Part shown: piece after piece, positions 24,501 through 52,577 of the stretch | Position numbering within the stretch: the stretch's first letter is position 1 | How the letters are laid out: every line of letters begins with the position of its first letter | From: Lentisphaerae bacterium GWF2_50_93 | Lineage (GTDB): Bacteria; Verrucomicrobiota; Lentisphaeria; Victivallales; GWF2-50-93 | DNA length: 64,000 nt | Assembly: GCA_001804815.1 (NCBI GenBank) | Contig: MHBI01000088.1 | Location: 12,224-76,223, forward strand | Reading direction: 5' to 3' | Notes under the pieces: model-generated | What the model was told of the DNA's origin: nothing | The model's input: the letters and a program-made list of their open reading frames with translations, nothing else | Databases searched by the model: none | Position numbers and translations under genes: made by a program

Positions 24501-27500
24501 CTCGTGCTACGAATATTCCGGTCTGCAGAGAATCACTGTTAGGCGTGACATTGGAAAAGACGGTTCAGCGAGCGTAGATGTCTATATCACCGACATCACA
24601 GCAACACATGCAGCCGATTACACTGTCAGCGCCGGTGCTGGACTTGTCACCTATGACGCCGTCAACAGCAGATACAAGGTAACTCTTTCATGGGCCGATC
24701 AAGTATCAACTTCAAAGTATTTCGATATTAATGTCGTTGAGGATGATCTCATCGAAGGAGACGAAACAGCGAGCATCACTTTGAATAATCCCGTCGGAGC
24801 AGCCCTTGGCGCCCAGAGCTCCGCGGAATTCACGATTATCGACAATGACTATCTGCTTGAAATTCATCCGCTGGTTGCTGAAGGCGGCAATGGGGTTGCA
24901 AGCGCTGTGCCCGTTTCCTCTTCCTCCGATACAACGACCGCCGATATTTCAGCTGTACCAGACGCCAATTACCATTTCGTGAACTGGACAGCGGTAGGAC
25001 CTGTCACTTTCACCAATGCGAATTCCGCAAATACAAAAATAGCCTACAAAGGCAGCTCTATCGTCACTGCGAACTTCGCACATGATTCGGTCGCACTCAC
25101 CATGGCAGTTGCCGGTGAAGGAGCAGCGACGGCGACTCCAGTTTCGGGACCTGCGATTGTCGCACCTGCATCTGGAAATACTGATAATGTGACCGCGATT
25201 TCGCTCGAAGCCATTCCCGACGGAGGAAGCAGCTTCGCCGGATGGTCGGTAATTGGAAACGCAACAATCGATGACACCGAGGATCCCACTACCAACCTGA
25301 CCCTCACAGGCGAAGACGGCTCCGCAGTCACTGTCACGGCAAATTTCATCGTAGGATCGGCAACTGTCCTCCCTCTCGTCGCTGGCGAAGCCACGGAGCC
25401 CGGGATAACCGACAGCACGGTCGGTGGCATTAAGATTTACAAGGTCACAGTTGATCCCGGCAACTCCCTTCTTGAAGTTACGACATCAGGAAATGGAGAT
25501 TGTGATCTGTATGTGCGTTATGCGGCAGCCCCTACCCTTTCAACGTATGACAAGCGTTCAACGGGAGTCGGAGCTTCGGAAAAGGTCAGGATTGAGGATC
25601 CGACCCCTGGCACCTGGTACATAATGCTACATGCATATGCCGCATATGACACTGTAAGCCTCGATGTGAAAGTCGGAGACTTTGCTATTGGACAGCCGGG
25701 GCCTATTACAGTTACGCCGTCGACTGCCAAGGTCCAGCTCGATTGGCCGGCTGTTGCAGCAGGTTCGCCCACCGCGTATGAAATCTACAGGGCGGAACTG
25801 GATGAAATAGAGGTTGCCACAAAGATCGCAGAGGTCGATGCGGCTGATCCGCTGACATATGACGATGTGTTCACCGCTGCGACACCCAATTATGATTATT
25901 ATTACTGGGTGAGGGCTGTAACAGCCACCGATGAAGGAAAATTCAGCGAATCGGCGCATGCGACTTTGACAGATGGATTGTTCACTCTGTTAGTAAGTGG
26001 AACGGAGAAAAAACTTATTTCCGGCGCTGCTGGTTCCATACAGATCTTCAAGATAAAGGTTCCTGCCGCCCAGACTCTCCTCGAGATAAAGATAAAAGGG
26101 TTAGTCGGCGACTGCGATTTCGATGTCGTTGCTCCTAACGGCGACACCGTGAAACGCGGGGTAAAAGGGAGCAGCAACGAACTTGTGCAGATAACCGGCA
26201 ATCCTCTTGCCACCGACTTCTGGACTATCCATCTCTACGGTAAAACTGCCTATTCCGGCCTGGGCCTGATGGCGAAATACAGCAAGCTGATCGCGGTGCC
26301 TGCAGCGCCAGTGGTCTCCGCAAGCGACGGGATGTTCGATGACAGGATACTCCTGAACTGGAAGACCGTGCCAGGAGCGACAAGATATGAAGTCTTCAGG
26401 AACAAGACAAAGCTCCCGCCAGATCCCATCAACGATAAGATCGCGGAAGTCGCCGATATAACATACGAAGACAACTCAAAGGAAGTGATCGTAGACGATA
26501 TTCCTGGAACTTTGTTCTATTATTTTGTCACCGCTAAAAATACTGTAGGCACCAGCAAACCCAGCGCCAGCAATTCCGGATTCATCATGAAGGCACCGCT
26601 TCTTACTCCCGCAGCGCCATTGGCTTCGGACGGCATTTACTTTGACAGGATCAACGTCAAATGGACAAAGGTGATTGGGGCGACATCATACCAGGTTTAC
26701 CGTACTGAAACCCTTACCGCACCTCTTATTGGCGTAGATACACCGGCTGGCGAAACAACAGCCCTGTTCCTTGACGATTTCGCAAAGGACTTCGTCCCGC
26801 AGGCTGGCGGGGTTCTGAACGTGAATAATTACTATTACTGGATAGCCGCGAAGAACCAGAATGGGACAAGCCCCATAAGCAAGGTAAATTCCGGATTCCT
26901 TTCCAAGAAGGGTCCCGCCACGATAACCGCCAGCAACGGCACATATTCAGACAGGGTTGTAGTGACCTGGGCGGCAGTGCCTGGAGCAACTGCCTATGAC
27001 GTGTACCGCTGCACCGACATCAAGTTCATTCTGGGACCGTCAACGGTCGGCAACGCAGTCGAGGGCTTGGAATTCGAGGATGTGCCGCCTGTCTCGGACA
27101 CCGTCTACTACTACAAAGTGAAGGCGAAGTACAACGCCAAATACGACAGCAACTTCTGTCTGGGCACCGCGATTGGCAAGATGACGACAGGCGCATCCAG
27201 CCCTACGGTGGAACTGGCGCTGGACAACAATACCGATTCCGGCAGCATTACCGACAAACTCAAGGGCAGTTCGCTTTACTACTCGGTCGACGTTCCTTAC
27301 GGAACCACAAGGATTGTTGCCACGCTCAGCGGAACTCCACCGCCTGTCGGAACCACCAACGACTGTGATCTGTTTGCGAAGTTCGCAAACTTTCCGACAA
27401 AGGCGTCCTACAGCGCAAAAGGCATTGAAAATCTCGTGGCCAAAACTGAAATCCTAACAGTGAGCAATCCTGCCGCAGGCACCTGGTATTTCCTGCTATA

Positions 27501-28785: not shown

Positions 28786-28903
28786 GTAGTAGCGCATGTT
28801 TGCGCGTTTTTCGGTTTTAAAATGGAGCGCCGGTCTCCAGGCCGGCTTCTTGCCGACCTGGAGGTCGGCGTTCCTTTAAGAACGCGCAAACATGCGCTAC
28901 TAC
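28786..28903. repeat. MITE-like element (GTAGTAGCGCATGTTTGCGCG termini), complete copy
   Basis: gtagtagcgcatgtttgcgcg (28786-28806) is the perfect inverted repeat of cgcgcaaacatgcgctactac (28883-28903). Internal hairpins are ccggtctccaggccgg and gccgacctggaggtcggc. The right two-thirds recur at 50261-50359. Confidence 0.9.
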
Positions 28904-29218: not shown

Positions 29219-32200
29219 ATGCATACTCCATTTTCGTCCCGATGCACAACCGCGCTGGCCAGTCTTCTTTTATTCATCTCCTTCACATCCGCACAGGCGG
29301 AGGATAAAAGCCTCGGAGCCTGGACGGCGAAAGACCCGAGTACGGCCTTGTATAGAATCTACGGCATGGCATTCGGGAACAACACATATGTCATAGCCGG
29401 TTACAACGGCGGCACATGTAAGAGTTTCATTGCAAATTCTCCTGACGCGACAACCTGGACCCTGAGATCCACGGGAAGCACATCCTTGGAATTCAACTCC
29501 GTGATTTTCTCAAAAGGCCGTTTCATCGCGGTATGCGGACAGCCTGATTCAAAGACCGCCAGGATCTGGACATCGGACACCAATGGCAACACCTGGGTGA
29601 GCAGGAGCTCCAATATCACTGTCGCAGGCAAACTTAATGCAGTTGCTTCGGACGGCAATGGCAGACTTATCGCCGCAGGAGCGAATGCTGATGGCGACGG
29701 ATGGCTGACGGTTTCAACTGACAACGGAACAACATGGTTTACCCCCGAGGGTGCGTCCTTCCCTGGAGAAACATTCTACGGTGTAGGATATGCCATCGGA
29801 AACTGGTATGCGTTCTCGACGTCGGGGACCTACAAGTCAACAAACGGGGGAACTGCCTGGGCTTCAGTGGCGGGATCTCCTGCCGTAGACGACAAAGGAT
29901 ATAAAGTCGCTTCAAACAAGACAACGGTCGTTGTCGCCTCATCAACTGGCCCCATATGGTCGAAGGATGGCGGAGCGACGTGGTATGCAGGCACGTATGC
30001 AAATGGGTTTACAGGTTCCCTGACATCGGCGGCATCAAGCGTAGTCTATGCGGATGGCACATTCGTTCTTGCCGGACGCAACTCGGGAGAGGCATGGAGC
30101 TCTGAAACCGGCCAGACCTGGAAGAGATGGACACTTCCCTCAACTACCACTTACGCCTTATGCTACGGAAAAAAATCGTTCTGGTGCGGAGGCGCGTTTG
30201 CCATGCACAACATACCAACGATTTCAAAATCCCCTTCCTGGTTCAAGGCGCGTCTCGGATGCAGCAGCGATTATCCATACACAATATTCGATGCCGAGGA
30301 CGGACCGCCGAACCGCATAGGCCTTCCGCAGTACAGGGTCAACACCGCATCTTTGAACCTTGTCCTCGAAAGCACATTGTTCTACGTCAAGGCCCTGGGA
30401 TCACCCATCAATTTTAAGCTGGTCTACAATTCCAGGCCGACCGATGACGACAATTCGACCATAGGGCCGTTCGGCAAGAACTGGCGCTTCCGCTACGAGT
30501 CGGTGGTTGGACGATTCGGACAGGATGCTATACTCGTCAAGGGCGGAGGCAGAAACTTCGCCTTCACCACGCCCAAGGGAGAGAACCTCGACACCTACTC
30601 GGGCCCTGACGCGGAATTGATTCTCGATCCTCCGGACGGGACATTTGACAAACTTGTCTACAAGCATGCGGTTCCGAGCTTCGAACTTACTATGAAATCC
30701 TCGCATCTCAAATACATATACGGGACCAAGGGCAGTACGGCAGACGTAAACGACAGCCTCTTCTATCTTTCCGCCATCGAGGACCAGTTCGGGAATACGA
30801 CAACCCTGTCCATAGACGCCCCCACCGGGCGGATCGACTCCATAGCAAATGGCGGCAGAACCTTCTCATTCACCTACACTGGCTCACTTTGCAGCGGAAT
30901 CAGCATTCCCGACGGGCGTTCCGTCGACTTCACCTACGACGCACACGAAAACCTCACCAGCATAACGGACATGAGGGGCTACCAGGGAACATATGCCTAC
31001 GACGCTGCTAATCTTGGGTTCCTCATGTCAATGTCGACGGCAGGCAAGACCACGACTTTCACTTATGCGGACAGACCGGGCTACAACGAAGCAGGCACCG
31101 TCGAGAACTTGGGCGACAAATATCTCAAGTCGCTCACCCGCCCGAACGGGAGCATTACGAAATATGAGCTCCTGGACGGCGGAGACACGGTGAAGCGCAC
31201 ATCACCGTCGGGAGAGATCACTCTAATATCCAACGAGGAAGGGCAGACTACTTCCGTGAAGGATCCGCTTGGAAACGTGCGCAACATAACGTTCAACGAC
31301 GCAAAGCTCCCCTCCTCTGTCACCGACGAAAAAGGCGGGGTCTATACCTACGAATATGTCAACGGCAACATGACCAGGCAGACGGATGCAATGGGGAGGT
31401 CGACCTCTTATGAATATGATGCCAGCAGCAACCTCATAAGAACCACCAACGCCCTTGGAAAATCCTGGACATATACCGGCTATGCGAACTATCAGCCTGG
31501 CAAGATCACCACACCCATGCTCTATGAGACAAATTTCACCTATTGGCCAAATGGGCGCATGAAGGACATAACCGATGCACGCGGTAATAAAACGTCCTTC
31601 ACCTATGACCCGTACGGCAATCTTGATACTGCGACATCCCCGGCTCCGGTCAGTGCAGTAACGGATCTCACCTACGACCCGCAGGGGTTCAGGTGCACCA
31701 AGATGAAAGATGCCAGCTTGAACGAAAAGGCACTGGAATGGGATGCCAACGACCGCCTCCTGTCCATCACCTATGATACCGTCGCAGACCTGCCTGCATA
31801 CACAAACACATACAATGCTTTCGGACAGACAGGATTCACAGACGAGCTTGGAAAATCCAGCACAGTGGTCCGTGACGAACTCGGATTCATAACATCAGTG
31901 ACGAATCCACTCGGACATGTCACCCGGAAGGAATACGACGCTGATCTACGGCCTTCGAAGACCATTGATCCCCTGGGCAGGGCGACATCGACCTCGTATG
32001 ACAATGCTGGGCGTCCAATCCTTTTTACCGACGCCAGGGGATTCAAGATAGTAAAGGAATATGACAGCACCGGAAACCTCGTCTCCTTCAAGGACAAGAA
32101 CGGTGCGGAAACGAAATACACCTATGACACTAACGGCAGGCTCGTGTCAACCTCTGATCCTCTCAAAAAAACCTACACGATCACCCGCGATATCATCGGA

Positions 32201-33982
32201 AGGATATCCTCGACCACGAACGCAAGGCTCCAGGTCATAGGCTATGAATATGACGACAATGGCCTCTTAAAAAAGAAGACGTTGACAGGGGCTGCGACAC
32301 CACTCGTTGAAAACACGCTCGACGAAAATGGAAACATCACAAAACAAATCGATTCCTGGGGAAGCACCCCCGCCACCGCCACGCAATATGCGTATGACAC
32401 CAACAACCGCGTGACAAGCATAACATACCCGGATGCGAAAACCGTGGCCTTGACTTACAACAATACAGGAAACATCGCCACCATAACCTATCCTGACGGT
32501 CTTGTCGCCACTTACACTTACGACACCTTCAACCGCCAGCCTGTACCGTCCATCCTCAAGAACAATCCCGGAACTGAGATTGCAGGACAGAGCCGATCGA
32601 CAAATGCCATTACGGACGTCACGCTTTCCGGAGCAGCTTCCGCCAATTTCACACTTTCGTATGACAAGCGCGGCAGGATCAGCACATTGACCCGACCGGA
32701 TAATTTCACAAAATCCGACTATACCTATGACGATGCGGGAAGGACAACCAGGTTGGTCCACAGCAAGACCGGAGGATCTGCGGCAGTGGATTTCACTGTT
32801 GAATGCAGTCCTAACGCCGTAGGCAACCTTTCCTCGGAAAACTTCTGCGGAGCATCTTATTACCAGTCCGCCCAGACGCCTTCATCCATGGCCCTTGCCT
32901 ACAATGCAGCTGGACAGCTCATGAAAAAAGGAGTGGAGGCCTGCATAAGCGATGCGGACGGCAATCTCACCGATCTCGGGGCAGGAACCGTGAAATGCAC
33001 ATATGACGCTGAAAACAGGCTCACCAGGATGGTCAGGAAAGCAGGCACGACCACTGACAACACCTACAACGCCAGCGGTCTCCGCGTCAAGCGCGTAATC
33101 GGCAGCGAGACAATCTTCTATCATTACCTGCCATCAGGCACCCTTCTTTTCACGACGGACGGAAGCGGGACGGTGATGGACAGGCATGTTTTCGCGGGCG
33201 GGACTCTTCTTGCGACTCTTAAAGCTTCGGGAGCTCTGATCCACTATTACGGCGACCTGCAGGGCAACGCAAGGTTCATAGCAGACAATTCCGGTGCCGT
33301 TCTTGTGCAATACGACTACCTGCCATATGGACAGGTCGGCACGAACAAACTCGGAATTAACGATGCTCTGATAGACAATAATCCTTTCACCATGAATGGC
33401 ATCCTCGGAGTCCAGGACGAAGGCGACGGCATATTCTGCATGGGGAAACGTTTCTACGAGGCGGCTTCGGCTCGCTTCCTCAGCCGGGATCCCCTTGGTT
33501 TTACAGCAGGCTCGAATCTTTATGCGTTTGGGAGGAACAATCCGATAATCTATGCGGATCCTACCGGAAAAATACCTGTAGTTGTGCCTCTTGTAATGGC
33601 AGGTGCGGGCTTCATCTACTGGTGCATGAGTTCGTCAAAAAGTCACGAAGAAGCAAATGCCGAAGCTGCTGCCATCAACGCCAAATACCGGGCAGAAGAG
33701 CTTAAAAAGGCAAAAGAACTGAATGATCGCCTCAAAGGATATCACGGCCGTGAGAGGGAAATGATGATGGAGGCGGAGGGGCTTCACTCATCCCAGTCTA
33801 ATGCCGTCGATGCATTGCATGAAGGTGTTGACCAGGCAGCCAATCGCATGGGAGAGGTTGGAGAGATTGGCGCGAACACGGCTCAAAACTTGATTACTGG
33901 AGGAGCTGTAGGCGCAGGATTGGATGCTGGCGGCGCTATTTCAGAAGAGATTGAAAACCAGGGTGCCGAGCAGGAGGAATAA
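29219..33982 (+). CDS. Rhs/YD-repeat protein 1 (1587 aa): signal peptide, BNR/Asp-box propeller, YD-repeat shell, Rhs core, 136-aa tip
   Basis: The signal peptide is ...LASLLLFISFTSAQA. Asp-box motifs include STDNGTTW, SKDGGATW, SDTNGNTW and SETGQTW. The Rhs entry region is LPQYRVNTASLNLVLESTLFY. There are many YD repeats (FTYDAHENL, YEYDASSNL, KEYDSTGNLVSFKDKNG...). The Rhs-associated core ends RFYEAASARFLSRDPLGF...NNPIIYADPTGK (DPTGK at 33557-33571). Confidence 0.92.
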   Translation: MHTPFSSRCTTALASLLLFISFTSAQAEDKSLGAWTAKDPSTALYRIYGMAFGNNTYVIAGYNGGTCKSFIANSPDATTWTLRSTGSTSLEFNSVIFSKGRFIAVCGQPDSKTARIWTSDTNGNTWVSRSSNITVAGKLNAVASDGNGRLIAAGANADGDGWLTVSTDNGTTWFTPEGASFPGETFYGVGYAIGNWYAFSTSGTYKSTNGGTAWASVAGSPAVDDKGYKVASNKTTVVVASSTGPIWSKDGGATWYAGTYANGFTGSLTSAASSVVYADGTFVLAGRNSGEAWSSETGQTWKRWTLPSTTTYALCYGKKSFWCGGAFAMHNIPTISKSPSWFKARLGCSSDYPYTIFDAEDGPPNRIGLPQYRVNTASLNLVLESTLFYVKALGSPINFKLVYNSRPTDDDNSTIGPFGKNWRFRYESVVGRFGQDAILVKGGGRNFAFTTPKGENLDTYSGPDAELILDPPDGTFDKLVYKHAVPSFELTMKSSHLKYIYGTKGSTADVNDSLFYLSAIEDQFGNTTTLSIDAPTGRIDSIANGGRTFSFTYTGSLCSGISIPDGRSVDFTYDAHENLTSITDMRGYQGTYAYDAANLGFLMSMSTAGKTTTFTYADRPGYNEAGTVENLGDKYLKSLTRPNGSITKYELLDGGDTVKRTSPSGEITLISNEEGQTTSVKDPLGNVRNITFNDAKLPSSVTDEKGGVYTYEYVNGNMTRQTDAMGRSTSYEYDASSNLIRTTNALGKSWTYTGYANYQPGKITTPMLYETNFTYWPNGRMKDITDARGNKTSFTYDPYGNLDTATSPAPVSAVTDLTYDPQGFRCTKMKDASLNEKALEWDANDRLLSITYDTVADLPAYTNTYNAFGQTGFTDELGKSSTVVRDELGFITSVTNPLGHVTRKEYDADLRPSKTIDPLGRATSTSYDNAGRPILFTDARGFKIVKEYDSTGNLVSFKDKNGAETKYTYDTNGRLVSTSDPLKKTYTITRDIIGRISSTTNARLQVIGYEYDDNGLLKKKTLTGAATPLVENTLDENGNITKQIDSWGSTPATATQYAYDTNNRVTSITYPDAKTVALTYNNTGNIATITYPDGLVATYTYDTFNRQPVPSILKNNPGTEIAGQSRSTNAITDVTLSGAASANFTLSYDKRGRISTLTRPDNFTKSDYTYDDAGRTTRLVHSKTGGSAAVDFTVECSPNAVGNLSSENFCGASYYQSAQTPSSMALAYNAAGQLMKKGVEACISDADGNLTDLGAGTVKCTYDAENRLTRMVRKAGTTTDNTYNASGLRVKRVIGSETIFYHYLPSGTLLFTTDGSGTVMDRHVFAGGTLLATLKASGALIHYYGDLQGNARFIADNSGAVLVQYDYLPYGQVGTNKLGINDALIDNNPFTMNGILGVQDEGDGIFCMGKRFYEAASARFLSRDPLGFTAGSNLYAFGRNNPIIYADPTGKIPVVVPLVMAGAGFIYWCMSSSKSHEEANAEAAAINAKYRAEELKKAKELNDRLKGYHGREREMMMEAEGLHSSQSNAVDALHEGVDQAANRMGEVGEIGANTAQNLITGGAVGAGLDAGGAISEEIENQGAEQEE

Positions 33983-34203: not shown

Positions 34204-37200
34204 ATGATTACTTCATGGGGTTCACGGCTCCAAACGGCCATCGCCGGACTCATCCTATTCTCAATATTCGCATCAGCCCAGGCAAGCGACACGCTCGGGG
34301 CATGGACAGCGAAAAATCCCGGGCTCAGCCTTGACGGGAATTACCAGATTTATGGCATGGCATACGGCAACAACACCTATGTGATTGTCGGAAAAAGCAA
34401 CAGCACAGGCAAGGCTTTCACAGCCAATTCCACTGATGGGACGCACTGGACCCTGAGAGGTGTTGCAAGCGAATCTGAGATCTTCAACTCGGTTATTTTC
34501 TCCAAGGGCCGTTTCATTGCAGTATGCACAAAACCGGCTACCGGCAGCGCCCGGATCTGGACGTCCGACAACAATGGCGGCACCTGGACGCCCAGGAGTT
34601 CCGACCTTCTTGTGGACGGCAGTTTGAATGGAGTCGCCGGTGACGGCAACGGCAAACTGGTTGCCGTCGGTGAAATCACCGATGTCTGGAATGGATGGAT
34701 CACTTGTTCATCGGACAATGGCAACACCTGGAGCGTTGTCCGCGACGGAGCAGTCTACAAGACGTTTCCAACGAAATTCTTTGGCGTAGGATATGCACTC
34801 GGCAATTGGTATGTGCTTGGATCAAACGGAGTTTATAAGTCGAATGGGATCGACTGCACGGCTTGGACCGACCCGGTGCCTGATTCCTCGCAGTTCTATA
34901 CGCAGAGCGACGACCTGCCGGGTTATAAGTTCGCTTCGAACCAGACAACGATTGTCGCGGCTTCGCTGTCCGGCCCCAAATGGTCGGACGACAATGGCGC
35001 CAACTGGAGCGATGGCGCACCGGCGCCGGGTTTCGAAGCAGTAGCCTCCCTGTACAGCTGGACTTCAAGCGTGGTTTATGCGGAAGGCCTGTTCGTCGTT
35101 GCGACACGCCGCGACGGGGATGTCTGGACTTCCGAGGATGGCCGGACATGGGAGAGGCGGACGCTGCCGACGGCGGATGAGACAAACGCGCTCTGCTACG
35201 GGAATAAATCATTCTGGTGCGGCGGCCTGTCGGAGACAATTGCAGTATCCGGGCCATGGCTCAAGGCCCGGATCGGCGGCAGTACGGATTTCCCATATAC
35301 GCTGTTTGACGCCCAGGACGCCCCTCCGAACCACATCGGCCTTCCACAGTACCGGGTCAATACCGCATCACTGAACCTTGTCATGGAAGGCACTCTTTTC
35401 CATATGAAGACCTTGGGCGCGTCGATCAACCTCAAGCTGGTCTATAATTCGCAGCCCTGTGCGGACGATGCGACAGACATCGGGCCGTTCGGCAAGAACT
35501 GGCGGTTCCGTTACGAGTCAGTTGTCGGACGCTCCGGCAAGAATGCCAGGCTGGTCAATGGCGGCGGCAGAAGCATGACATTCACCACTCCCAACGGTGA
35601 GGATCTCGGAACTTATGCAGGTCCTGAAACAGCATTGACCCTGAAATCTCCGGAAGGCATCTATGACAAGCTTGTCTACAAATATGCGGTTCCGAGCTTC
35701 GAACTTACCTTGAAAGCCTCCCATCTGAAATACACTTATGCCGTAACGGACAGCAACTCAGGCGGCAGCCAGTTCCATCTCTCCAGCATCTCGGATCAGT
35801 TCGGCAATACGACGACTCTCAATATCGACCCAACCAGCGGCGCCGTCACCAAGATAACAGATTCATCCTTACGGGAAATCAACTTTACCTACAATCCCAA
35901 CCCTGCAACGGGACTTTGCACCGGAATGACAATGCCGGGACGATCGGTCAGTTTCAGTTATACCGGAAAAAATCTCGCTGGCATTACTGACGCAGAGGAA
36001 TTTTCAGGCACGTATGCCTACGACTCCAACGGATTTATCACCTCGATGACGACAGCAGGCAAAACCACCACGTTCACATACAAGGACAGGGTCGGCGTCA
36101 GCAATGGCGATAAATCCCTTGCCACGGTCACGCGTCCCGGTGCATACGGCACGATCAAATACGAAATCCTGGAGGACGGCAAGACCGTAAAACGCACGGA
36201 TCCGCTTGGTCAGTCGACGATTATTTCCAGTTCGGGAGGCCAGACGACATCAGTCAAGGATCCGCTGGGGAATGTGCGGAGCATCGCCTTCAGCGGAGCG
36301 AAGCTTCCGGAAACTTTCACGGATGAGAAAGGCGGCGTCTGCAGATACGAATACGATTCCCGCGGCAACATGACCAGGAAGACCGACGCCCTCGGAAATA
36401 TTACAAATTATTATTACGATCCTGCGACTGACGATATGACCAGGATGGAAGACGCCTTCGGCTATCCATGGGTCTATGCCTATTCTAATTGCCAGCCGAC
36501 AAGTATAACTACACCCGTAGGAAACATCACCTATTTCGCCTATGATGGACAGGGTCGTCTTACAACCCTCACCGACGCACGCGGCACTGACACGGATTTC
36601 ACCTATGACAAGGGAGAGGTGGCTACAGTTACAAGCCCTGCTTCAGGCACGACAACTTTTGCATACGATGTTGCATCACGCTGCATCTCAATCCAGGACG
36701 CAAATCTCAAGACAAAATCCCTCTCCTGGGACAATAACGACCGTCTGGAAACCGTAACCTATAATTCCGTTGCTGGACCACCGTCATACTTGAACGGCTA
36801 CTCCGCTTTTGGACAGACCTCCTTCCAGGACGAACTTGGCGAATGGACATATGCCACCCGCGACGACCTGGGATCCATCACAACAATCCGCGATCCCCTT
36901 AACAACGTCAACCAGATGGAATACGATCTTGACAACCGGCTGACCAAGACCATCGATCCCCTGCTGCACTCGAGAGCGACTTCCTACGACAGCGCAGGAC
37001 GACCGACAATATTCACGGACGCCAGAAGCTACAAGGTCGTGCGCGAATACGACAGCACCGGCAACCTAGTATCCTTCAGGGATTCGAATAATTCCACCAC
37101 GACCTATAAATACGATGCGAACGGCCGTCTGCTGAGTGTCATGGATCCGCTCCTGAAGTATAACACCATGACCCGGACGAAGACAGGTCAGATCGCCTCC

Positions 37201-38973
37201 ACCAAAAACGCACGCAGCCATACTATAAACTATACATATGATTTTGATGGACGGCTCCAGGAAAAAGCACCGGCGGCACCAGCACCGGCGACCAAGGTCG
37301 CGTATGTGCGGGATCCCAACGGCAACGTCACAACACGGACCGACACATCGGAGGGAACTGATTTCATCACAGGCTATGTATATGATTCAAGCAATCGTAT
37401 CACGAAAATCACCTATCCGGACGGCAAAGTGGTTGATTTGACATGGCTTGCAGGCGGACAGCTCGCCAGCATCGCCTATCCCGACGGCCTCGCCGTCACC
37501 TACAGCTATGACAACTTCAACCGTATTCCAATACCTTCGGTGCTGAAGAACAATCCCGGAACCGATCTTGTGGGCGAAAGACGTTCCACGAATGCAATTA
37601 CCAAGGTCGCTGTCACGGGCGCCGTCAACGATGATTATGATTTCACTTACAATGACCGTGGGCAGATCACCCAGATGCTGCGGCCGAACGGGACACAGTC
37701 CGATTATGCCTATGACAATGCTGGACGCCTCATCCAGATCAAGCACAGCGTGACAGCGGACGGCACAAGCCTTTTCCTTGCCGACTACGGCATGGATGCC
37801 GCGGGAAATGTCATAAGGGAACAATCTGTCGGAACCGCATACTATCAGGGCAATGATCTGCCGGAAAAGATGGCGATGCTCTACAACACGGCCGGGGAAC
37901 TCACCAAGAAGGGTGCCAAGGCCTGTACGAGCGATGCCGACGGAAATCTCACGGATCTCGGAGCCGGAACGACGAAATGCACATATGACGCCGAGAACAG
38001 GCTCACGGCAATTGTCAGGAAAATAAATGCGACAACGACAGAGACCATTGTCAACACGTTCGATTCAGACGGCTACCGCATCAGGCGAGTCAACGGCGCC
38101 GAGACGATCAATTATCACTACCTGCCATCCGGCATCCTGCTATTCACTACAGATGATGCAGGTGTCATCATTGATCGCCATATCTATGCCGGAAATTCAC
38201 TTCTCTCGACCTATAAGGCCAATGGGGATTGGCTTGACTACTACGGGGACCGGCAGGCGAATGTGAGATTCATCGCCGATGCCACAGGCGCCGTGCTTGT
38301 GGAATATGGATACCTTCCCTACGGGCAGTTTGACAGCCTCATGACGGGGGTGAACGATGGAGCAATAGACAAGAATCCCTTCACCTTCAACGGCATGCTG
38401 GGCGTCCAGGATGAAGGAAGCGGCCTGTTCTACATGCAGCAGCGCTTCTATGACGCCTCCACCGCCCGGTTCCTTGGCAGGGATCCTCTCGGGTTCTCGG
38501 CGGGCAACAACCTTTACGCTTTCGGCAAGAACAACCCCATTATCTATGCCGATCCGACCGGAAGGATTCCGGTATTCATCGTAATTCTTGGACTAGTATC
38601 ATTTGCCCACTATGGCCTGGGAATCTTTGAAAGCCATGACAATGCAAATGCGAATGCTGCGGAAATCAACGCCAAATATCGTCAGAAGGAGCTGGAAGCA
38701 AAAAAGAAATTCAATGAGACATTTAAAAGCAATCCCAAGGATTTCAATCAGAAATTGGCCAATGCTCAAAAAACAAGCAACATGTATGAGCGCGGATTGA
38801 GCAGTTTGTTTGAAACTACCGAACAGGTCGGCAACCGCGCCGGCGAAGCGGCCGAGATTGCCGGGAGTACGGCTGAAAACGTGGCTCTGGGCGATTATCT
38901 TGGCACAGCCTGGGATGCCATCAAGGCCACCTACACCGACTTTACAAATGAAAGCGCAGAAACGGGTAAATAA
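34204..38973 (+). CDS. Rhs/YD-repeat protein 2 (1589 aa), paralogue of Rhs1 with a different 135-aa tip
   Basis: GGAGGG lies before the ATG at 34204. The signal peptide is ...LILFSIFASAQA. Asp-boxes include SSDNGNTW, SDDNGANW and SEDGRTW. The same LPQYRVNTASLNLVMEGTLFH region and YD repeats are present. The core ends RFYDASTARFLGRDPLGF...NNPIIYADPTGR (38551-38565). Confidence 0.92.
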   Translation: MITSWGSRLQTAIAGLILFSIFASAQASDTLGAWTAKNPGLSLDGNYQIYGMAYGNNTYVIVGKSNSTGKAFTANSTDGTHWTLRGVASESEIFNSVIFSKGRFIAVCTKPATGSARIWTSDNNGGTWTPRSSDLLVDGSLNGVAGDGNGKLVAVGEITDVWNGWITCSSDNGNTWSVVRDGAVYKTFPTKFFGVGYALGNWYVLGSNGVYKSNGIDCTAWTDPVPDSSQFYTQSDDLPGYKFASNQTTIVAASLSGPKWSDDNGANWSDGAPAPGFEAVASLYSWTSSVVYAEGLFVVATRRDGDVWTSEDGRTWERRTLPTADETNALCYGNKSFWCGGLSETIAVSGPWLKARIGGSTDFPYTLFDAQDAPPNHIGLPQYRVNTASLNLVMEGTLFHMKTLGASINLKLVYNSQPCADDATDIGPFGKNWRFRYESVVGRSGKNARLVNGGGRSMTFTTPNGEDLGTYAGPETALTLKSPEGIYDKLVYKYAVPSFELTLKASHLKYTYAVTDSNSGGSQFHLSSISDQFGNTTTLNIDPTSGAVTKITDSSLREINFTYNPNPATGLCTGMTMPGRSVSFSYTGKNLAGITDAEEFSGTYAYDSNGFITSMTTAGKTTTFTYKDRVGVSNGDKSLATVTRPGAYGTIKYEILEDGKTVKRTDPLGQSTIISSSGGQTTSVKDPLGNVRSIAFSGAKLPETFTDEKGGVCRYEYDSRGNMTRKTDALGNITNYYYDPATDDMTRMEDAFGYPWVYAYSNCQPTSITTPVGNITYFAYDGQGRLTTLTDARGTDTDFTYDKGEVATVTSPASGTTTFAYDVASRCISIQDANLKTKSLSWDNNDRLETVTYNSVAGPPSYLNGYSAFGQTSFQDELGEWTYATRDDLGSITTIRDPLNNVNQMEYDLDNRLTKTIDPLLHSRATSYDSAGRPTIFTDARSYKVVREYDSTGNLVSFRDSNNSTTTYKYDANGRLLSVMDPLLKYNTMTRTKTGQIASTKNARSHTINYTYDFDGRLQEKAPAAPAPATKVAYVRDPNGNVTTRTDTSEGTDFITGYVYDSSNRITKITYPDGKVVDLTWLAGGQLASIAYPDGLAVTYSYDNFNRIPIPSVLKNNPGTDLVGERRSTNAITKVAVTGAVNDDYDFTYNDRGQITQMLRPNGTQSDYAYDNAGRLIQIKHSVTADGTSLFLADYGMDAAGNVIREQSVGTAYYQGNDLPEKMAMLYNTAGELTKKGAKACTSDADGNLTDLGAGTTKCTYDAENRLTAIVRKINATTTETIVNTFDSDGYRIRRVNGAETINYHYLPSGILLFTTDDAGVIIDRHIYAGNSLLSTYKANGDWLDYYGDRQANVRFIADATGAVLVEYGYLPYGQFDSLMTGVNDGAIDKNPFTFNGMLGVQDEGSGLFYMQQRFYDASTARFLGRDPLGFSAGNNLYAFGKNNPIIYADPTGRIPVFIVILGLVSFAHYGLGIFESHDNANANAAEINAKYRQKELEAKKKFNETFKSNPKDFNQKLANAQKTSNMYERGLSSLFETTEQVGNRAGEAAEIAGSTAENVALGDYLGTAWDAIKATYTDFTNESAETGK

Positions 38974-39118: not shown

Positions 39119-42100
39119 ATGAAAATGTTTCGTCATCCGCGCATCTCGTCGCTGCTTTCAGCGCTTTTTTTCTTCTCCTTATTAACTTCAGTCCAGGCCG
39201 CCAGCGACAGCCTCGGGACGTTTACGGCGAAAAATCCCGGGCTCAGCACCACGGAAATCTATGATATCTACGGCATGGCCTACGGCAACAACACCTATGT
39301 AATTGTCGGGCAGAACTACATCACAGGAAAGGCTTTTACTGCCAATTCAACTGATGGCAAGACATGGACAATAAGATCATCAGGAAGCACATCTGCACTT
39401 TTCCATTCCGTAATTTTTTCAAATGGCCGTTTCATTGCCGTGTGCAAGCAGCCTGACTCGGGGAATGCCCGTATCTGGACATCCGATACCAATGGCAACT
39501 CCTGGGTGACCCGTAATACCGACAATGCCGGACTCATTGTTCCAGGTGGATTGCACGGCGTTGCTTCTAATGGCAATGGAAAACTCGTTGCCGTTGGAGG
39601 AACACCTTATCTGAGTGGATGGATGACCGTTTCAAACGACAACGGGACCACCTGGAGAGTTGTCCGCAACGGAGCCGGGACCGATTACGAGTCATTCCTC
39701 AATAAGTTATACGCTGTTGGCTATGCACTCGGAAACTGGTATGCTTTTTCCACATCAGGAACCTATCGATCAGACGATCCGGCTACGGCATCCTCCTGGA
39801 TCAGCGGCGGTCCGGCAGTTGACAATATCCAGATGCTGGGATATAAAGTCGCTTCAAATCAATCAACCATTGTTGTCGCCTCATCCACTGGTCCGAAATG
39901 GACGATAGACAATGGACTGACCTGGCATACCGGCACGCAGGCAAAAGGCTATGAAAGTGTAAGTTCCCTGACCGATGCCGCATCAAGCGTAGTTTACGCG
40001 GATGGTTATTTTGTCCTGGCAACCCGGGAACCCTATTACAACGGTGACGACTTCAAATATTACGCAGATATCTGGATCTCCGAAACCGGACGCCAATGGA
40101 AACGGTGGAGAACTGCACAATTAATGCACGACGCCGATTACACTTTTTCACTCTGCTATGCTAAAAGGGCATTCTGGTGTGGTGCATTGAGAGAAAGACT
40201 TTCGAAATCTCCTTCCTGGTTCAAGGCGCGTAACGGGTGCAGCTCCGATTATCCATACACAGTTTTTGATACCGAGGACGGCCCGCCGAACCGTATCGGG
40301 CTTCCGCAGTACCGTGTCAACACCGCATCGTTGAATCTGGTTCTTGAAGCCACTCTCTTCTATGCAAAAACACCTGCCGCACCTCTCAACTTCAAGCTCG
40401 TCTACAATTCCAAGCCCTGCGCAAACGGCGACACGTCGATCGGCCCGTTCGGCAAGAACTGGCGGTTCAGGTATGAGTCGGCAGTCGGCCGTTTCGGACA
40501 GGAGGCGCAGGTCATCGCCGGAGGCGGACGCAGCCACACTTTCGCGACGCCCAACGGAGAGGATCTTGAAACTGTCACCACCGACGTCACACTCAAGGCA
40601 CCGGACGGAATATTCGACGAGCTGAAGTACTATTACAACGGCGGAGTTTCAAGGTTCGAGCTGTCCCTGAAGTCATCGCATCTCACCTACATATATGGCA
40701 CCGCCGGCACAGGCCCCGACAATACCGGTCTTTTCTATCTCACCGGGATCACGGATCAGTTTGGCAAGACGACGACTCTGAACGTCAGCGCCGCCACCGG
40801 ACTGATCAACTGGATAGATGATCCTTCAACCCCGGCCCGCTCATTCACCTTCGCCTACAACGGCGAGAACCTTTGCACAGGAATTTCTATTTCCGGCGGA
40901 CGCTCCGTAGGTTTCTCGTACGATGCCGACAAGAATCTCATCGGCATCGATGACATGATGGACTACCACGGTTCGTACGCATATGATGAATATGGGTTCA
41001 TGACCTCGATGACTACGGCAGGAAAGACCAATACTTTCACATATGTTGACAGGCCCGGCTACGAGACCGATCCGATTGAAACCCGCGACAAATATCTCTC
41101 TTCCATCACCAGGCCCGGCGGAAAGAAGATCAAGTATGAGCTTCAGGACGAAGGTGAAACTGTCAAGCGCACTGATGCCGCCGGCGAGATAACCCTTTTT
41201 TCCAACAAGGACGGACAAACCACCAAAATAACCGACCCTCTGGGCAATATCCGCACGATCGAATATAATGGCGCCAAGCTGCCGGAAACTGTGACAGACG
41301 AAAAAGGCGGGGTGTTCACCTATAAATATGACGAAAAGGGAAACATGACCGAAAAGAAGGACGCCATGGACAACGTCACGGCCTGCGAATATGATTCCGA
41401 CAGCAACGTCACTAAAGTCACAAACGCCCTGGGCAAGTTCTGGGACTACACTTATAACACGAAGTACCAGCCCCTGACCATCACCACACCTCTCGGCAAC
41501 GACACTACCTTTACCTATGTTGGCAAGAATCTTACCAACATCAACGATTCCAGAGGCAATGATACTTCCTTTGGATATGACACCTACGGCAATCTCATTT
41601 CGATATCACCGTCCACGTCATTCACGTACACCGACAAATTCCACTGCGATTTCATCACGGACGCCAATGGCAAGATTAAGGCAATCGCCTGGGACAACAA
41701 CGACCGCATTACGACGGTAACCTATACCTCCGCCGGCGGCGCTTCGTATACCAACACCTATAACGCCTTCGGCCAGATTAATTTCACGGATGAACTTGGT
41801 CAGGAAACTGCGATTGTCCGCGACGAACTCGGCTACATCACATCGATCACCGACCCGCTTGGAAACATAAGCCAGACCGAATACGATGCAGAAAGCCGTC
41901 CTATCAAGAAAACCGATCCTCTGGGCAGGATTACCTCGACAACCTACGACAAGGATGGGCGTCCGATAGTATTCACCGACTCCAAGGGCTATACAATCAC
42001 CCGCAGCTATGATGGAGGCGGGAACCTCATTTCCTTCAAGGACAAGAACAGTTCGGAAACGACATTCTCATATGACGCGAACAACAGGCTTGTCGGCACA

Positions 42101-43945
42101 ACCGACCCCCTCAAGAAAATCTCCTCCATAACTCGTGATGCGATTGGACGGGAAGCGACCATCACAAATGCGCGCGGACAGACCGTCACCTGCTCCTATG
42201 ATGACGACGGAAGGCTTTCCGGCAAAACCTCCAGCGTCGCCGGTTCCACGCCGATCGCATATACCCGCGATGGCAACGGCAACATACTTACTCAGACAGA
42301 TGCCTGGGGCACGACAACATACACATATGACGACTACAACCGAATCCTGTCCATAACCTATCCTGACACGACAGCTGTAGCTCTGACATGGAAAGCCGGT
42401 GGACAAATCGATACCATAACCTATCCGGGCATTACCGCCCTTGCCGTATCCTATACCTACGACAACTTCAACCGATATCCTGTCCCCAGCATCCTCAAAA
42501 ACAATCCCGGCACCGAACTTTTCGGCGAAAGCCGCACCACAAATGCCGTTACGGGAATTGCAGTGACCCTTGGCGGAGCACCGCATGGCAACTATGCCAT
42601 GACCTATAACAGCCGTGGTCAAATCACCCAGATGACCCGTCCAAACGCAACACAGTCGGACTACGCATATGACAGTTGTGGGCGTGTCACACAGATCAAG
42701 CACAGCGGTGGTAACAATGTCGACTTCACTGCCGACTATGCCTTCAATGCCGTTTCCAACGTCACTTCTGAAACCTTCTCCGGCGACTCCTATTATCAGG
42801 ACACAGAGCTTCCCCTCAAGATGGCTTTGACCTACAACATCGCGGGGCAGCTCACCAAAAAGGGCGCACAGTCCTGTATCAGCGATGCTGACGGGAACAT
42901 AACCGACATCGGCGCCGGGACAATCAAGAACACGTATGATGCCGAGAACAGGCTCATTCAGACCGTCCGGAAAATCGATGCCACAACAACAGAGACCATA
43001 AACAACACCTACAATGCGGCCGGACTCCGCGTAAAGAAGGAGATTGTAGGCGGAGACACGATAGTATATCACTATCTGCCCTCCGGAATCCTTCTTTACA
43101 CCACCAACGGGCTCGGAACGCTCATCGACCAGCATGTCTATGCAGGCAATGCGCTCGTCGCAACATATGATCCGCCTAATAATAAAGCCATCCAATATTA
43201 TGCCGACCGTCAGGCGCATGTCCGCCTGATAGCAGACGTCAATGGTGAAGTACTGGTAAAATACGATTACCTGCCCTACGGCCAGGTGGCCACATACAAG
43301 CTCGGTGTCAAAGATGAGGAGATCGACAAGAATCCCTTCACCTTCAATGGTGTCCTTGGAGTTCAGGACGAAGGGAACGGCGGATTCTACATGCAGCAGC
43401 GCTTCTATGATTCCTTGAGTGCGCGATTCCTTTCAAGAGATCCTCTGGGTTTGAATGCCGGAAACAATCTCTACGCCTTCGGAGGCAACAACCCAATGTC
43501 GAATGCCGACCCCACAGGAAAATTCATAGATCCCCTTTCCCTCGTTGTCTATGGCCTCGCAATAACGGCCGTAGTGGGGGCAACGTCTTATGCCGTTGAT
43601 GCGGTGAAATCCTCCATGGCTGATGTCAAAAAAGCTTCTGATGCCCGAGGTGACATGATTGAGTCATTCAAGAAGAACGGAGATACAGCTGAAAGCTGGC
43701 AGAAGCATGACAAGTCTGTTGACTTGACGCTGGATGCGAACGAAAATACAATGAGAAGGACTGGACAGGTCATAGTAAACACCGGCATAGAAGTCGGAAA
43801 GGCCCTGATTCCTGGAGCGAACACGCCTGCCGGGAAGATTGTCCAAGACATCGTTACAGACCAGATCGTGGACAATGCTATAAAAGAGCCACTCCTGGAT
43901 TCCATGGAAGCGCCGCAGCCACAACAAACCGAGGGAGGAGAATGA
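39119..43945 (+). CDS. Rhs/YD-repeat protein 3 (1608 aa), paralogue with a third distinct 140-aa tip
   Basis: The signal peptide is ...LFFFSLLTSVQA. Asp-boxes include SNDNGTTW and SDTNGNSW. LPQYRVNTASLNLVLEATLFY and YD repeats are present. The core ends RFYDSLSARFLSRDPLGL...NNPMSNADPTGK (43508-43522). The stop TGA at 43943-43945 overlaps the ATG at 43942. Confidence 0.92.
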   Translation: MKMFRHPRISSLLSALFFFSLLTSVQAASDSLGTFTAKNPGLSTTEIYDIYGMAYGNNTYVIVGQNYITGKAFTANSTDGKTWTIRSSGSTSALFHSVIFSNGRFIAVCKQPDSGNARIWTSDTNGNSWVTRNTDNAGLIVPGGLHGVASNGNGKLVAVGGTPYLSGWMTVSNDNGTTWRVVRNGAGTDYESFLNKLYAVGYALGNWYAFSTSGTYRSDDPATASSWISGGPAVDNIQMLGYKVASNQSTIVVASSTGPKWTIDNGLTWHTGTQAKGYESVSSLTDAASSVVYADGYFVLATREPYYNGDDFKYYADIWISETGRQWKRWRTAQLMHDADYTFSLCYAKRAFWCGALRERLSKSPSWFKARNGCSSDYPYTVFDTEDGPPNRIGLPQYRVNTASLNLVLEATLFYAKTPAAPLNFKLVYNSKPCANGDTSIGPFGKNWRFRYESAVGRFGQEAQVIAGGGRSHTFATPNGEDLETVTTDVTLKAPDGIFDELKYYYNGGVSRFELSLKSSHLTYIYGTAGTGPDNTGLFYLTGITDQFGKTTTLNVSAATGLINWIDDPSTPARSFTFAYNGENLCTGISISGGRSVGFSYDADKNLIGIDDMMDYHGSYAYDEYGFMTSMTTAGKTNTFTYVDRPGYETDPIETRDKYLSSITRPGGKKIKYELQDEGETVKRTDAAGEITLFSNKDGQTTKITDPLGNIRTIEYNGAKLPETVTDEKGGVFTYKYDEKGNMTEKKDAMDNVTACEYDSDSNVTKVTNALGKFWDYTYNTKYQPLTITTPLGNDTTFTYVGKNLTNINDSRGNDTSFGYDTYGNLISISPSTSFTYTDKFHCDFITDANGKIKAIAWDNNDRITTVTYTSAGGASYTNTYNAFGQINFTDELGQETAIVRDELGYITSITDPLGNISQTEYDAESRPIKKTDPLGRITSTTYDKDGRPIVFTDSKGYTITRSYDGGGNLISFKDKNSSETTFSYDANNRLVGTTDPLKKISSITRDAIGREATITNARGQTVTCSYDDDGRLSGKTSSVAGSTPIAYTRDGNGNILTQTDAWGTTTYTYDDYNRILSITYPDTTAVALTWKAGGQIDTITYPGITALAVSYTYDNFNRYPVPSILKNNPGTELFGESRTTNAVTGIAVTLGGAPHGNYAMTYNSRGQITQMTRPNATQSDYAYDSCGRVTQIKHSGGNNVDFTADYAFNAVSNVTSETFSGDSYYQDTELPLKMALTYNIAGQLTKKGAQSCISDADGNITDIGAGTIKNTYDAENRLIQTVRKIDATTTETINNTYNAAGLRVKKEIVGGDTIVYHYLPSGILLYTTNGLGTLIDQHVYAGNALVATYDPPNNKAIQYYADRQAHVRLIADVNGEVLVKYDYLPYGQVATYKLGVKDEEIDKNPFTFNGVLGVQDEGNGGFYMQQRFYDSLSARFLSRDPLGLNAGNNLYAFGGNNPMSNADPTGKFIDPLSLVVYGLAITAVVGATSYAVDAVKSSMADVKKASDARGDMIESFKKNGDTAESWQKHDKSVDLTLDANENTMRRTGQVIVNTGIEVGKALIPGANTPAGKIVQDIVTDQIVDNAIKEPLLDSMEAPQPQQTEGGE

Positions 43946-43947
43946 CC

Positions 43948-51704: not shown

Positions 51705-52080
51705 CACATGTTGCTGGGTGGATTTTTTCCGCTCGGGAAAAGGCAGGACGTCCCAGTCTGTCAATGAATTCGTCAGAAACGACAATGCCTGCGTGTCCGG
51801 AATAATAATATCCGAACTTGTCTACGGGGCCATTTCCAACAAGGAGGCGGACCTGATAAAGAACGTCCTGCTGGGCGTGCATGTAATGCCGATCGACAAT
51901 TCGATCCTCATGAAGGCGGGTGACATGGGTTTCTCCCTCCGCAGAAAAGGATTCACCATTCCACTGACAGATCTGGTGATCGCCGTACAATGCCTGGAAA
52001 ACAATCTGGAACTCATGACCTCGGACAAGCATTTCAGCATCATTTCAGAACATACACCGCTGAAGACACACGGAATATAA
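51688..52080 (+). CDS. vapC: Type II toxin, PIN-domain ribonuclease VapC-like (130 aa)
   Basis: The N-terminus is MRVMVDTCCWVDFF... The PIN acidic residues sit in the expected spacing: VDT, IISELVYG, PLTDLVIAV and MTSDKHF. The start could also be the ATG at 51697. The track start at 51607 is a GTG inside vapB. Confidence 0.8.
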   Translation: MRVMVDTCCWVDFFRSGKGRTSQSVNEFVRNDNACVSGIIISELVYGAISNKEADLIKNVLLGVHVMPIDNSILMKAGDMGFSLRRKGFTIPLTDLVIAVQCLENNLELMTSDKHFSIISEHTPLKTHGI

Positions 52081-52207
52081 GTCAAGGCGATACTTTAGAA
52101 GAAGATCCTGTCCGTCTCCGCCTTGCCGCCGACCAGCTCACGCATCCTGATTCCGAAATTATGAAGAATCACATTCAAAATAAGGAATCGATTTTCTTAT
52201 ACATCGG

Positions 52208-52237
52208 CTTGCATGCTACCTTGCATGGCATTATAGT
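52208..52237 (+). promoter_or_regulatory. Candidate promoter of the padR-like gene; geometry implies a leaderless mRNA
   Basis: TTGCAT (52209-14), a 17-nt spacer, then TATAGT (52232-37). The ATG at 52245 lies 7 nt after the -10, with no SD in between. The direct repeat CTTGCATG occurs twice (52208-15 and 52220-27). Confidence 0.45.
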
Positions 52238-52244
52238 AATCTCC

Positions 52245-52577
52245 ATGATCAAGACCAATCTTTCATATTACGAAAACTGGATAGTTCAGGCCCGCAAGGG
52301 ACTCCTGGAGCTGATGATACTGAACCGTCTCAACAAGAAGGGGGAGTGCTACGGCTACGAGCTTGTCAAGGAACTTATTGCGATACCTGGCTCCGGGCTC
52401 AGCGAGGGAACGGTCTATCCGCTCCTCTCCCGTCTTCGTGTCCAGGGGCTTGTGAAGACTTCCCTGAAGGAATCGGACGAGGGGCCTGCAAGAAAATATT
52501 ATTCCCTGACCGGATCGGGGGAGGAGACGTTGAATCTTATGAATGAATACTGGAAGACTTTAATATCGGCAGAATAA
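52245..52577 (+). CDS. PadR-family transcriptional regulator (110 aa)
   Basis: The sequence is MIKTNLSYYENWIVQARKGLLELMILNRLNKKGECYGYELVKEL...SEGTVYPLLSRLRVQGLVKTSLKESDEGPARKYYSLTGSGEETL, a classic PadR wHTH signature (GYEL, G-x-x-YP-x-L-x-R-L, RKYY-x-LT). The longer track ORF from 51990 overlaps vapC and is rejected. Confidence 0.88.
   Translation: MIKTNLSYYENWIVQARKGLLELMILNRLNKKGECYGYELVKELIAIPGSGLSEGTVYPLLSRLRVQGLVKTSLKESDEGPARKYYSLTGSGEETLNLMNEYWKTLISAE

Follow-up and report, generated by a model that had tools for sequence, protein, structure and literature searches.

A secreted protein with two YD repeats encoded directly downstream of a Sec-dependent Rhs array in a Lentisphaerae bacterium

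How do Rhs and teneurin-like containers that carry only a Sec signal reach the cell surface, and how do they stay on it? This open question is raised by a stretch of 64,000 nucleotides (nt) from Lentisphaerae bacterium GWF2_50_93 (contig MHBI01000088.1; the whole stretch is called the window below). Five large plus-strand open reading frames (ORFs) follow one another here, encoding an M6 metalloprotease, three Rhs paralogs (Rhs1 to Rhs3) and, last, a protein of 985 amino acids (aa) that is the target of this study. The target opens with a signal peptide and two YD repeats, hereafter the stub, and otherwise consists of a large C-terminal cassette. We found genes for such stub proteins directly 3' of Rhs genes at related loci, including loci in other phyla. 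These results suggest that the target system is an Rhs/teneurin-like toxin system with a trans-encoded YD-stub partner, that is, an Rhs accessory or tether undescribed so far.

The Rhs array and the start of the target gene are laid out as follows:

29219-33982, plus strand: Rhs1, with signal peptide, BNR-like propeller region, DUF6531, YD shell, Rhs-associated core and a tail of ~137 aa (Pfam RHS_repeat, TIGR03696, paralog alignment)
34204-38973, plus strand: Rhs2, a paralog of Rhs1 with 56% identity (Pfam, NCBIfam, paralog alignment)
39119-43945, plus strand: Rhs3, a paralog with 57% identity to Rhs1 (Pfam, NCBIfam, paralog alignment)
43933-43940, plus strand: Shine-Dalgarno sequence GGGAGGAG (sequence)
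43942-43945, plus strand: ATGA, in which the TGA of Rhs3 (43943-45) overlaps an in-frame upstream ATG (43942) of the target ORF
43942 or 43948 to 46905, plus strand: target ORF, 985 aa from the ATG at 43948
43948-44028, plus strand: Sec-type signal peptide of the target, aa 1-27, MKTFNTISLLIAVAATAFLSFATQAAA, no lipobox cysteine (translation; the public protein P0045 starts here)
44041-44151, plus strand: two-YD stub of the target, aa 32-68, ATYTYDENNCLTKVIYSNGRTANFSYDKNGNLTNVTT (Pfam RHS_repeat, leave-one-out stub model, stub alignment)

The target protein and its two-YD stub

Directly after its signal peptide the target reads YTYDENNCLTKVIYSNGRTANFSYDKNGNLTNV, two YD motifs that together make up a single Pfam RHS_repeat unit (aa 36-72; 24.1 bits against a cut-off of 22 bits); the original prediction, made from the letters of the sequence, had likewise described two YD repeats and nothing more. 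The stub starts 5 to 6 residues past the predicted signal-peptide cleavage site and, together with the signal peptide, is the only portion of the target that lies outside the generic cassette. An alignment of nine stubs, that of the target included, yielded the consensus Y.YD..NRL.[KR]V.Y.[NS]G....[YF][ST]YD..GN. It was ungapped except for the stub of locus L079, and the stubs lay within about 10 residues of the signal peptide.

Each stub was scored with a leave-one-out hidden Markov model (HMM) built from the stubs of other loci. The stubs reached 56-66 bits (L079: 33 bits), and the target stub reached 59.5 bits and is therefore above chance; among the shell repeats of nine Rhs proteins, none exceeded 31 bits on the stub HMM. 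When all ORFs of all loci were scanned, the matches to the stub HMM were bimodal, with 56-71 bits at ORF positions 22-85, close to the N-terminus, versus at most 39 bits for internal repeats. Judged by sequence, the stubs are a distinct subfamily. The idea that the target stub is a recent copy of a neighbouring Rhs repeat was rejected after comparison with the repeats of the adjacent Rhs genes.

The target has the sequence and position features of the family proposed here: behind a Sec signal peptide, exactly two YD motifs at fixed spacing come within about 10 residues, and the gene lies on the same strand directly 3' of a signal-peptide-bearing Rhs gene, here with the ATGA overlap with Rhs3. 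A different sample contained an ortholog, P0057 (1449 aa), built like the target from signal peptide, stub and cassette. The stub sequence of P0057 is ASYTYDANNRLTKVVYSNARTVSYTYDNNGNLTNL, identity to the target over the N-terminal 300 aa is 65%, and 26 nt upstream of the gene another gene on the same strand ends. Because the rest of the target is a generic cassette, and because the stub sits where the heads of other cassette carriers sit, we infer that the stub is the functional head of the protein.

The target itself is not an Rhs protein, since it has no shell, core or toxin, nor is it a classical orphan fragment. Its one RHS_repeat unit is not the long YD array of a shell, it matched neither the TIGR03696 core nor any other NCBIfam model, and it has no polymorphic C-terminal toxin after a core, its C-terminus being the cassette common to dozens of non-Rhs proteins.

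Both details of the gene start that had been pointed out earlier, the overlap of the Rhs3 TGA with the ATG at 43942 and the Shine-Dalgarno sequence before the ATG at 43948, are present in the sequence. The spacing from GGGAGGAG is 7 nt to the ATG at 43948 but 1 nt to that at 43942, so that the target likely starts at 43948; P0045, an identical 985-aa protein in the public protein collection, begins with MKTFNT at this position. The target gene is certainly in tight linkage with Rhs3, it is probably co-transcribed with the Rhs array, and translational coupling from Rhs3 to the target is plausible. Between the M6 gene and Rhs1 we noted terminator-like hairpins (28792-28870) and a promoter-like site (29151-78), neither in a number significantly above that in shuffled controls. 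These weak consensus matches upstream of Rhs1 are consistent with the M6 gene being a separate transcription unit. GC content was even along the window, with no sign of a foreign island.

Rhs-then-stub gene order at other loci

We chose genomic contexts by their similarity to Rhs3 (64% to 37% identity), independently of the stub. In every Rhs3-homolog context in which the next same-strand gene could be determined, that gene encoded a protein with a single N-terminal RHS_repeat match, and wherever DNA was available we read the signal peptide, the two-YD stub and the variable domains directly. The Rhs protein P0169 (64% identity) is followed after 26 nt, on two contigs, by a 1429-aa protein labelled RHS_repeat, PPC, Fn3 and PPC, and the contig of P0170 holds two Rhs genes, each followed by a protein of ~410 aa with RHS_repeat matches. 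The other stub partners have 261 aa with LRR_5 (L077), 245 aa (L079), 835 aa with Flg_new_2 (L080) and 529 aa with He_PIG (L081/L082, Verrucomicrobiota). P0171 (L061) was left out of the count because the next gene is another Rhs gene at the contig end. Overall, the gaps between Rhs and stub genes ranged from ~3 nt to a few hundred nt, and the partners from 245 to 1449 aa.

We also scanned metagenomes from the side of the stub, with the YD motifs as patterns. Most of the 15 loci listed were matches inside Rhs genes; the informative loci among the matches listed were L062, L063, L068 and L071, and the stub genes of all four lay 3' of Rhs sequence. A signal peptide was present in the Rhs protein wherever its N-terminus was visible (L062, L068 and L071). 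L068 and L071 showed Bacteroidota-type features. The partner at L068 ends in a type A sorting domain of type IX secretion systems (T9SS) (Por_Secre_tail; TIGR04183, 33.7 bits against a 23-bit cut-off), and that at L071 ends in a type I dockerin (Dockerin_1).

Two further observations concern these loci. At L071 (9968-13473) the partner and the product of the next gene, a BspA-type leucine-rich repeat (LRR) protein, have nearly identical C-termini of the dockerin type; this shared C-terminus parallels the window, where the partner carries the generic C-terminal cassette of its lineage. Between their Rhs and stub genes, L077 (12723-12851) and L062 (5984-6187) have small ORFs of 42 and 67 aa, respectively, which could be the true immunity genes there.

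The original prediction had proposed that the target is an accessory subunit rather than an independent enzyme. This proposal is well supported by the conserved synteny, and the target has no catalytic domain in Pfam or NCBIfam.

The Rhs proteins of the window are 56-57% identical to one another, and all three have a Sec signal peptide and a BNR-like propeller region. Their RHS_repeat scores were 181-208 bits over 5 to 6 matched stretches (Pfam; 1e-62 for Rhs1), and an Rhs-associated core with the DPxG...DPxG autoproteolysis motif (TIGR03696) was found at aa ~1367-1467 (aa 1367-1450 in Rhs1). Bacterial teneurin-like proteins combine an FN-plug, an NHL propeller and a YD shell. Of these, a YD shell is present in Rhs1 to Rhs3; their N-terminal region gave a sub-threshold BNR_2 match and no NHL match, and the homolog P0175 has NHL. 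The tails of ~135 aa that follow the DPxG...DPTG motif open with a hydrophobic helix, and the tail of Rhs3 is unlike those of Rhs1 and Rhs2. Pfam detected no known toxin domain in these tails, and a PAAR domain was not detected in Rhs1 to Rhs3. The intergenic gaps within the array are 221 and 145 nt and leave no room for immunity ORFs.

The shell repeat closest to the stub, YAYDTNNRVTSITYPDAKTVALTYNNTGN, was located at aa 1054-1090 of Rhs1 (~32378-32488) and aa 1057-1090 of Rhs2 (~37372-37473), the same place in both proteins, ~280-310 aa before the core domain, and it is among the best-conserved repeats of the paralogs. The Rhs3 repeat that best matches the stub lies at a different position. 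Rhs arrays are recurrent in this lineage and seem to break assemblies: at L061 (5523-11229), from a Victivallis metagenome-assembled genome (MAG), a frameshift interrupts the N-terminus of one Rhs gene (5523-5813 and 5810-10300), and a further Rhs gene stands at the contig end.

A generic Victivallales cassette at the C-terminus

The remainder of the target consists of these parts, which recur in the M6 metalloprotease:

44176-44463, plus strand: first PPC-like beta-sandwich, aa ~77-172, start of the cassette (Pfam PPC, two stretches; aligns from M6 aa 1472 and with other carriers from aa ~72)
44473-45615, plus strand: four Fn3-like repeats, aa ~176-556, of the SDGxFxD[RK]I...YxVYR type (BLASTP, Pfam, tblastn)
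45640-45942, plus strand: second PPC domain, aa ~565-665 (Pfam PPC at aa 580-653, 68 bits; PDB profile match to the PPC domain 2luw)
45943-46248, plus strand: Ig-like beta-sandwich resembling CarboxypepD_reg, aa ~666-767, with the motifs EGEHTxDFFF and PDTAKGTASHTV (sub-threshold Pfam, AlphaFold2, Foldseek)
46249-46905, plus strand: orphan alpha/beta domain, aa 768-985, with FLNIRNGW and YGVEGAGxGND, stop codon included (AlphaFold2)
21577-28512, plus strand: M6 metalloprotease ORF, 2311 aa
25990-28512, plus strand: paralogous copy of the cassette at the C-terminus of the M6 metalloprotease, M6 aa 1472-2311 (BLASTP, tblastn)

An alignment by eye had matched the last ~410 aa of the target with those of the M6 protease. 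The homology is real, but its extent had been understated: by BLASTP it spans ~910 aa (target aa 77-985, M6 aa 1472-2309), with target aa 281-985 matching M6 aa 1580-2309 at 39% identity (E 1e-128) and target aa 77-435 matching M6 aa 1472-1854 (E 1e-56). The motifs quoted in that alignment, FKG[KR]VVDE-GTGIP, PDTAKGTASHTV, FLNIRNGW and YGVEGAGxGND, were all found and are conserved through the cassette family, and the SDGxFxD[RK]I...YxVYR Fn3-like repeat occurs in both the target and the M6 protein.

The order of the cassette is PPC, a variable number of Fn3 repeats, PPC, Ig-like domain and orphan alpha/beta domain. In the target, PPC (PF04151) was matched in two stretches with 68 bits against a cut-off of 25.9 bits, and CarboxypepD_reg (PF13620) remained below threshold with 21.7 bits against 32.3 bits. 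The best PDB matches of the Ig-like sandwich, as modelled by AlphaFold2, were CARDB and macroglobulin domains (Foldseek). The model of the alpha/beta domain was of high confidence (pLDDT 91.3, pTM 0.89) and had no Foldseek match in PDB (best E 0.12, TM < 0.2) or BFVD; sequence searches of Pfam, NCBIfam and PDB likewise gave no match. The domain may represent a new fold, or it may bind a component of the cell envelope. It comprises ~218 aa at 46249-46902 and again at 27844-28509 in the M6 copy, and FLNIRNGW and YGVEGAGxGND are invariant.

We then determined how widely the cassette is distributed. Its ~390-aa core (PPC, Ig-like and alpha/beta domains) had only 26 relatives among 5.8 billion clustered proteins, and those with a named source were all from Victivallales or Lentisphaerae. 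Judged by the nearest homologs, the window likely derives from a Victivallales bacterium. The full-length module had ~65 representatives among 1.84 billion proteins. In GTDB genomes we found 57 cassette loci, all in Victivallales/Lentisphaerae and confined to a few Victivallales MAGs with 10-14 copies each. Wherever the module was complete at these 57 loci, it ended no more than ~13 residues from the stop codon, and the length of the carriers varied between ~400 and more than 3600 aa. Signal-peptide-like N-termini were present in most full-length carriers, and their heads were unrelated (BspA-type LRR, M6-like and others). In most carriers, the C-terminal 700-930 aa aligned colinearly with target aa ~72-985 (37-43% identity). 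By eye, a putative serine beta-lactamase-type region follows the cassette in the carrier P0048 and lies near the N-terminus of the carrier P0059.

The original prediction had described the Rhs array as bookended by two proteins with a shared module. This is literally true but not meaningful, as dozens of secreted Victivallales proteins carry the cassette. The M6 copy (39%) is no nearer to the target than the copies from other genomes (37-43%), and no M6 gene lies 5' of the Rhs arrays at other loci, so we rejected a special relationship between the two flanking proteins. Because the cassette is generic in the lineage and unlinked to Rhs, the bookend arrangement is coincidental.

The co-occurrence of the module with Rhs in other genomes had been proposed as a check, with absence of linkage counting against the idea, and on this point the idea failed: an Rhs gene lay within 10 kb of only 1 of the 57 cassette loci (L057). 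The Rhs protein at L057 is of the canonical lipase-toxin type, has no signal peptide and is followed by an ankyrin-repeat (immunity-like) gene and by no stub, and its presence near the cassette is by chance. The other half of the idea, that the module anchors or targets proteins, agrees with the data, as the module is terminal on many secreted proteins, and it is reasonable to regard the cassette as a putative C-terminal display or anchoring device.

In this respect the cassette resembles the C-terminal domains of the T9SS, dockerins, PEP-CTERM and SLH, in that it is almost always C-terminal, present in multiple copies, joined to unrelated heads and restricted to a lineage, and stub partners in other phyla carry T9SS and dockerin domains themselves. 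However, it is far larger (core ~390 aa, ~900 aa with the stalk), it has no sorting-domain match in Pfam or NCBIfam, including the T9SS models Por_Secre_tail and TIGR04183 in the target, it is internal in two proteins, and no cognate sortase or secretion system was identified for it.

Possible roles of the stub protein

The explanation that we favour, and to which we give about an even chance, is that the target is a secreted, non-enzymatic accessory of the Sec-dependent Rhs array in which the stub docks and the cassette anchors or escorts. It starts from what we observed directly, namely the architecture, the paralogy of the cassettes, the absence of a linkage between these and Rhs, and the conserved order in which a stub gene follows an Rhs gene, and adds a predicted physical docking of the stub and a predicted anchoring role of the cassette. 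The target would be exported by Sec, and the two beta-hairpins of its stub would bind the cognate Rhs after export, most plausibly by augmenting an exposed edge of the Rhs YD beta-sheet. The C-terminal cassette would then hold the complex on the surface of the producer or escort it there. The same logic could apply in other phyla, where the stub partners have a dockerin, a sorting domain of the T9SS or repeats of the adhesin type at their C-termini. More tentatively, and at rather less than an even chance, the stub proteins may constitute a cross-phylum family of Rhs partners, each with a signal peptide and exactly two YD repeats, in which the stub plugs a Sec-dependent Rhs/teneurin-like shell and a lineage-specific C-terminus, in Bacteroidota-like loci a dockerin or T9SS sorting domain and here the Victivallales cassette, displays or exports the container.

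There is a precedent for the docking of YD repeats onto YD repeats in trans. TcB and TcC are separately encoded YD/RHS-repeat polypeptides, the products of side-by-side genes, that form one shell through a continuous beta-sheet. The two systems differ in that each Tc partner supplies a large part of the shell while the target has only two repeats, and in that no TcA is present here and every Rhs protein comes with a signal peptide of its own, a core domain and an already complete shell. The accessories of Rhs proteins in type VI secretion systems (T6SS), such as EagR chaperones and VgrG/PAAR adaptors, are likewise encoded by genes next to Rhs and link it to an apparatus for export or display. 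The target shares with them the dedicated gene adjoining Rhs; they, however, have no signal peptide or YD repeats, are usually encoded upstream and serve the T6SS, whereas Rhs1 to Rhs3 have Sec signal peptides and no detected PAAR domain.

Several observations weigh against docking and anchoring as we propose them. The stubs are no more similar to the repeats of their own Rhs proteins than to those of other Rhs proteins, and we found neither a signal of covariation between stub and cognate Rhs nor a shell that obviously lacked a strand. In the window, a single stub protein is encoded alongside three Rhs genes. A stub partner was absent for six more distant Rhs/YD proteins that had room for one downstream, and the pairing is therefore restricted to a subset of Rhs proteins. 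The downstream genes on the P0169 and P0170 contigs are known from their Pfam labels and not from sequence. The cassette is internal in P0048 (aa 1657-2041 of 2421) and P0059 (aa 1454-1837 of 2062) and is thus not always a terminal signal, and it is much larger than known sorting signals. Finally, the LRR_5, Flg_new_2 and He_PIG C-termini of other partners look more adhesin-like than anchor-like.

These adhesin-type domains, and the binding-type domains that also occur on Rhs N-termini, would suit a targeting subunit of a binary toxin, in which the stub docks on Rhs and the remainder of the protein binds the target cell as a receptor-binding "B" component. We consider this plausible but unlikely: the T9SS sorting domain and the dockerin that terminate the partners at L068 and L071 act on the side of the producer, and the non-stub part of the target is a cassette that is found under unrelated heads and fits display better than specific targeting.

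More improbable still is that the stub protein is an immunity protein that neutralises the C-terminal domain of Rhs in the periplasm. Immunity proteins are hypervariable and toxin-specific, yet here the stub stays conserved from phylum to phylum, and the Rhs tails are unrelated. The partners span 245-1449 aa and are made of adhesin and anchor domains, a single protein would have to serve three Rhs genes although the tail of Rhs3 differs from those of Rhs1 and Rhs2, and separate small ORFs lie between the Rhs and stub genes at L077 and L062. On the other side, the gene is directly 3' of a toxin gene, and no other candidate immunity ORF lies between or after the Rhs genes of the window. Bacterial teneurin-like proteins are also followed by another gene immediately downstream, which is reported to provide immunity; the teneurin-like proteins are Sec-dependent YD-shell toxins with a propeller and a polymorphic C-terminal domain of ~15 kDa, and their authors state that the delivery mechanism is unknown and that no machinery is evident (Raoelijaona et al. 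2026, PMC13018210). They were not reported from Lentisphaerota, Verrucomicrobiota or Bacteroidota (PMC13018210). The system described here differs from them in that the downstream gene encodes a conserved YD stub joined to anchor- or adhesin-type domains.

About as improbable is an independent surface protein, in which the two YD repeats are a minimal carbohydrate-binding element and the adjacency to Rhs reflects coincidence or shared regulation. The annotation of TIGR01643, which describes YD repeats as generally involved in carbohydrate binding, would favour this, as would the lack of linkage between the cassette itself and Rhs. However, the same gene order was found in all Rhs3-homolog contexts examined and at the four stub-first loci, in different phyla, and the stub-HMM scan detected no stub ORF at the 57 cassette loci, which are without this type of Rhs.

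Rhs loci are recombination hotspots, and Rhs "orphans", which consist of the end of the core with an alternative toxin and an immunity gene and have no signal peptide, resemble the target gene in placing a short Rhs-like sequence immediately 3' of a full-length rhs gene. It is nevertheless very improbable that the target is a scar of this kind, an Rhs fragment fused by chance to a cassette gene and without function at the protein level, even though Victivallis MAGs repeatedly contain Rhs arrays and frameshifted copies (L061): the stub is N-terminal, always directly after the signal peptide, and has neither the core motif nor the toxin of classical orphans, it is conserved in different phyla with scores of 56-66 bits, it was copied from none of the repeats in the adjacent Rhs genes, and its conservation between the target and P0057 suggests purifying selection.

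No curated family covers the stub partners, for which the generic TIGR01643 repeat model gave the only match, and literature searches gave no description of them. New besides is the lineage-specific C-terminal cassette with its orphan domain, which defines a putative Victivallales-specific surface-display module and helps to annotate the many giant proteins that bacteria of this lineage, found in the gut and the environment, secrete. The conserved partner gene offers a concrete and testable answer to the question of how Sec-dependent containers reach and stay on the surface, in that its product combines a constant two-YD stub with a variable end that is a recognisable anchor or secretion signal. 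If the answer is right, stub proteins would be the missing anchoring or delivery component of T6SS-independent Rhs toxins. The partner gene also makes Rhs systems of this class easy to recognise in genomes.

The array has further neighbours in the window. Directly 5' of the M6 protease lies a giant ORF of 4503 aa (7828-21339), without the cassette and with DUF4347 as its sole Pfam match. On the 3' side of the target gene are two IclR regulators and two ferredoxin-like genes, as well as a PIN-domain ORF (51607-52080) and the ORF of a PadR-type regulator (51990-52577), which overlap by ~90 nt.

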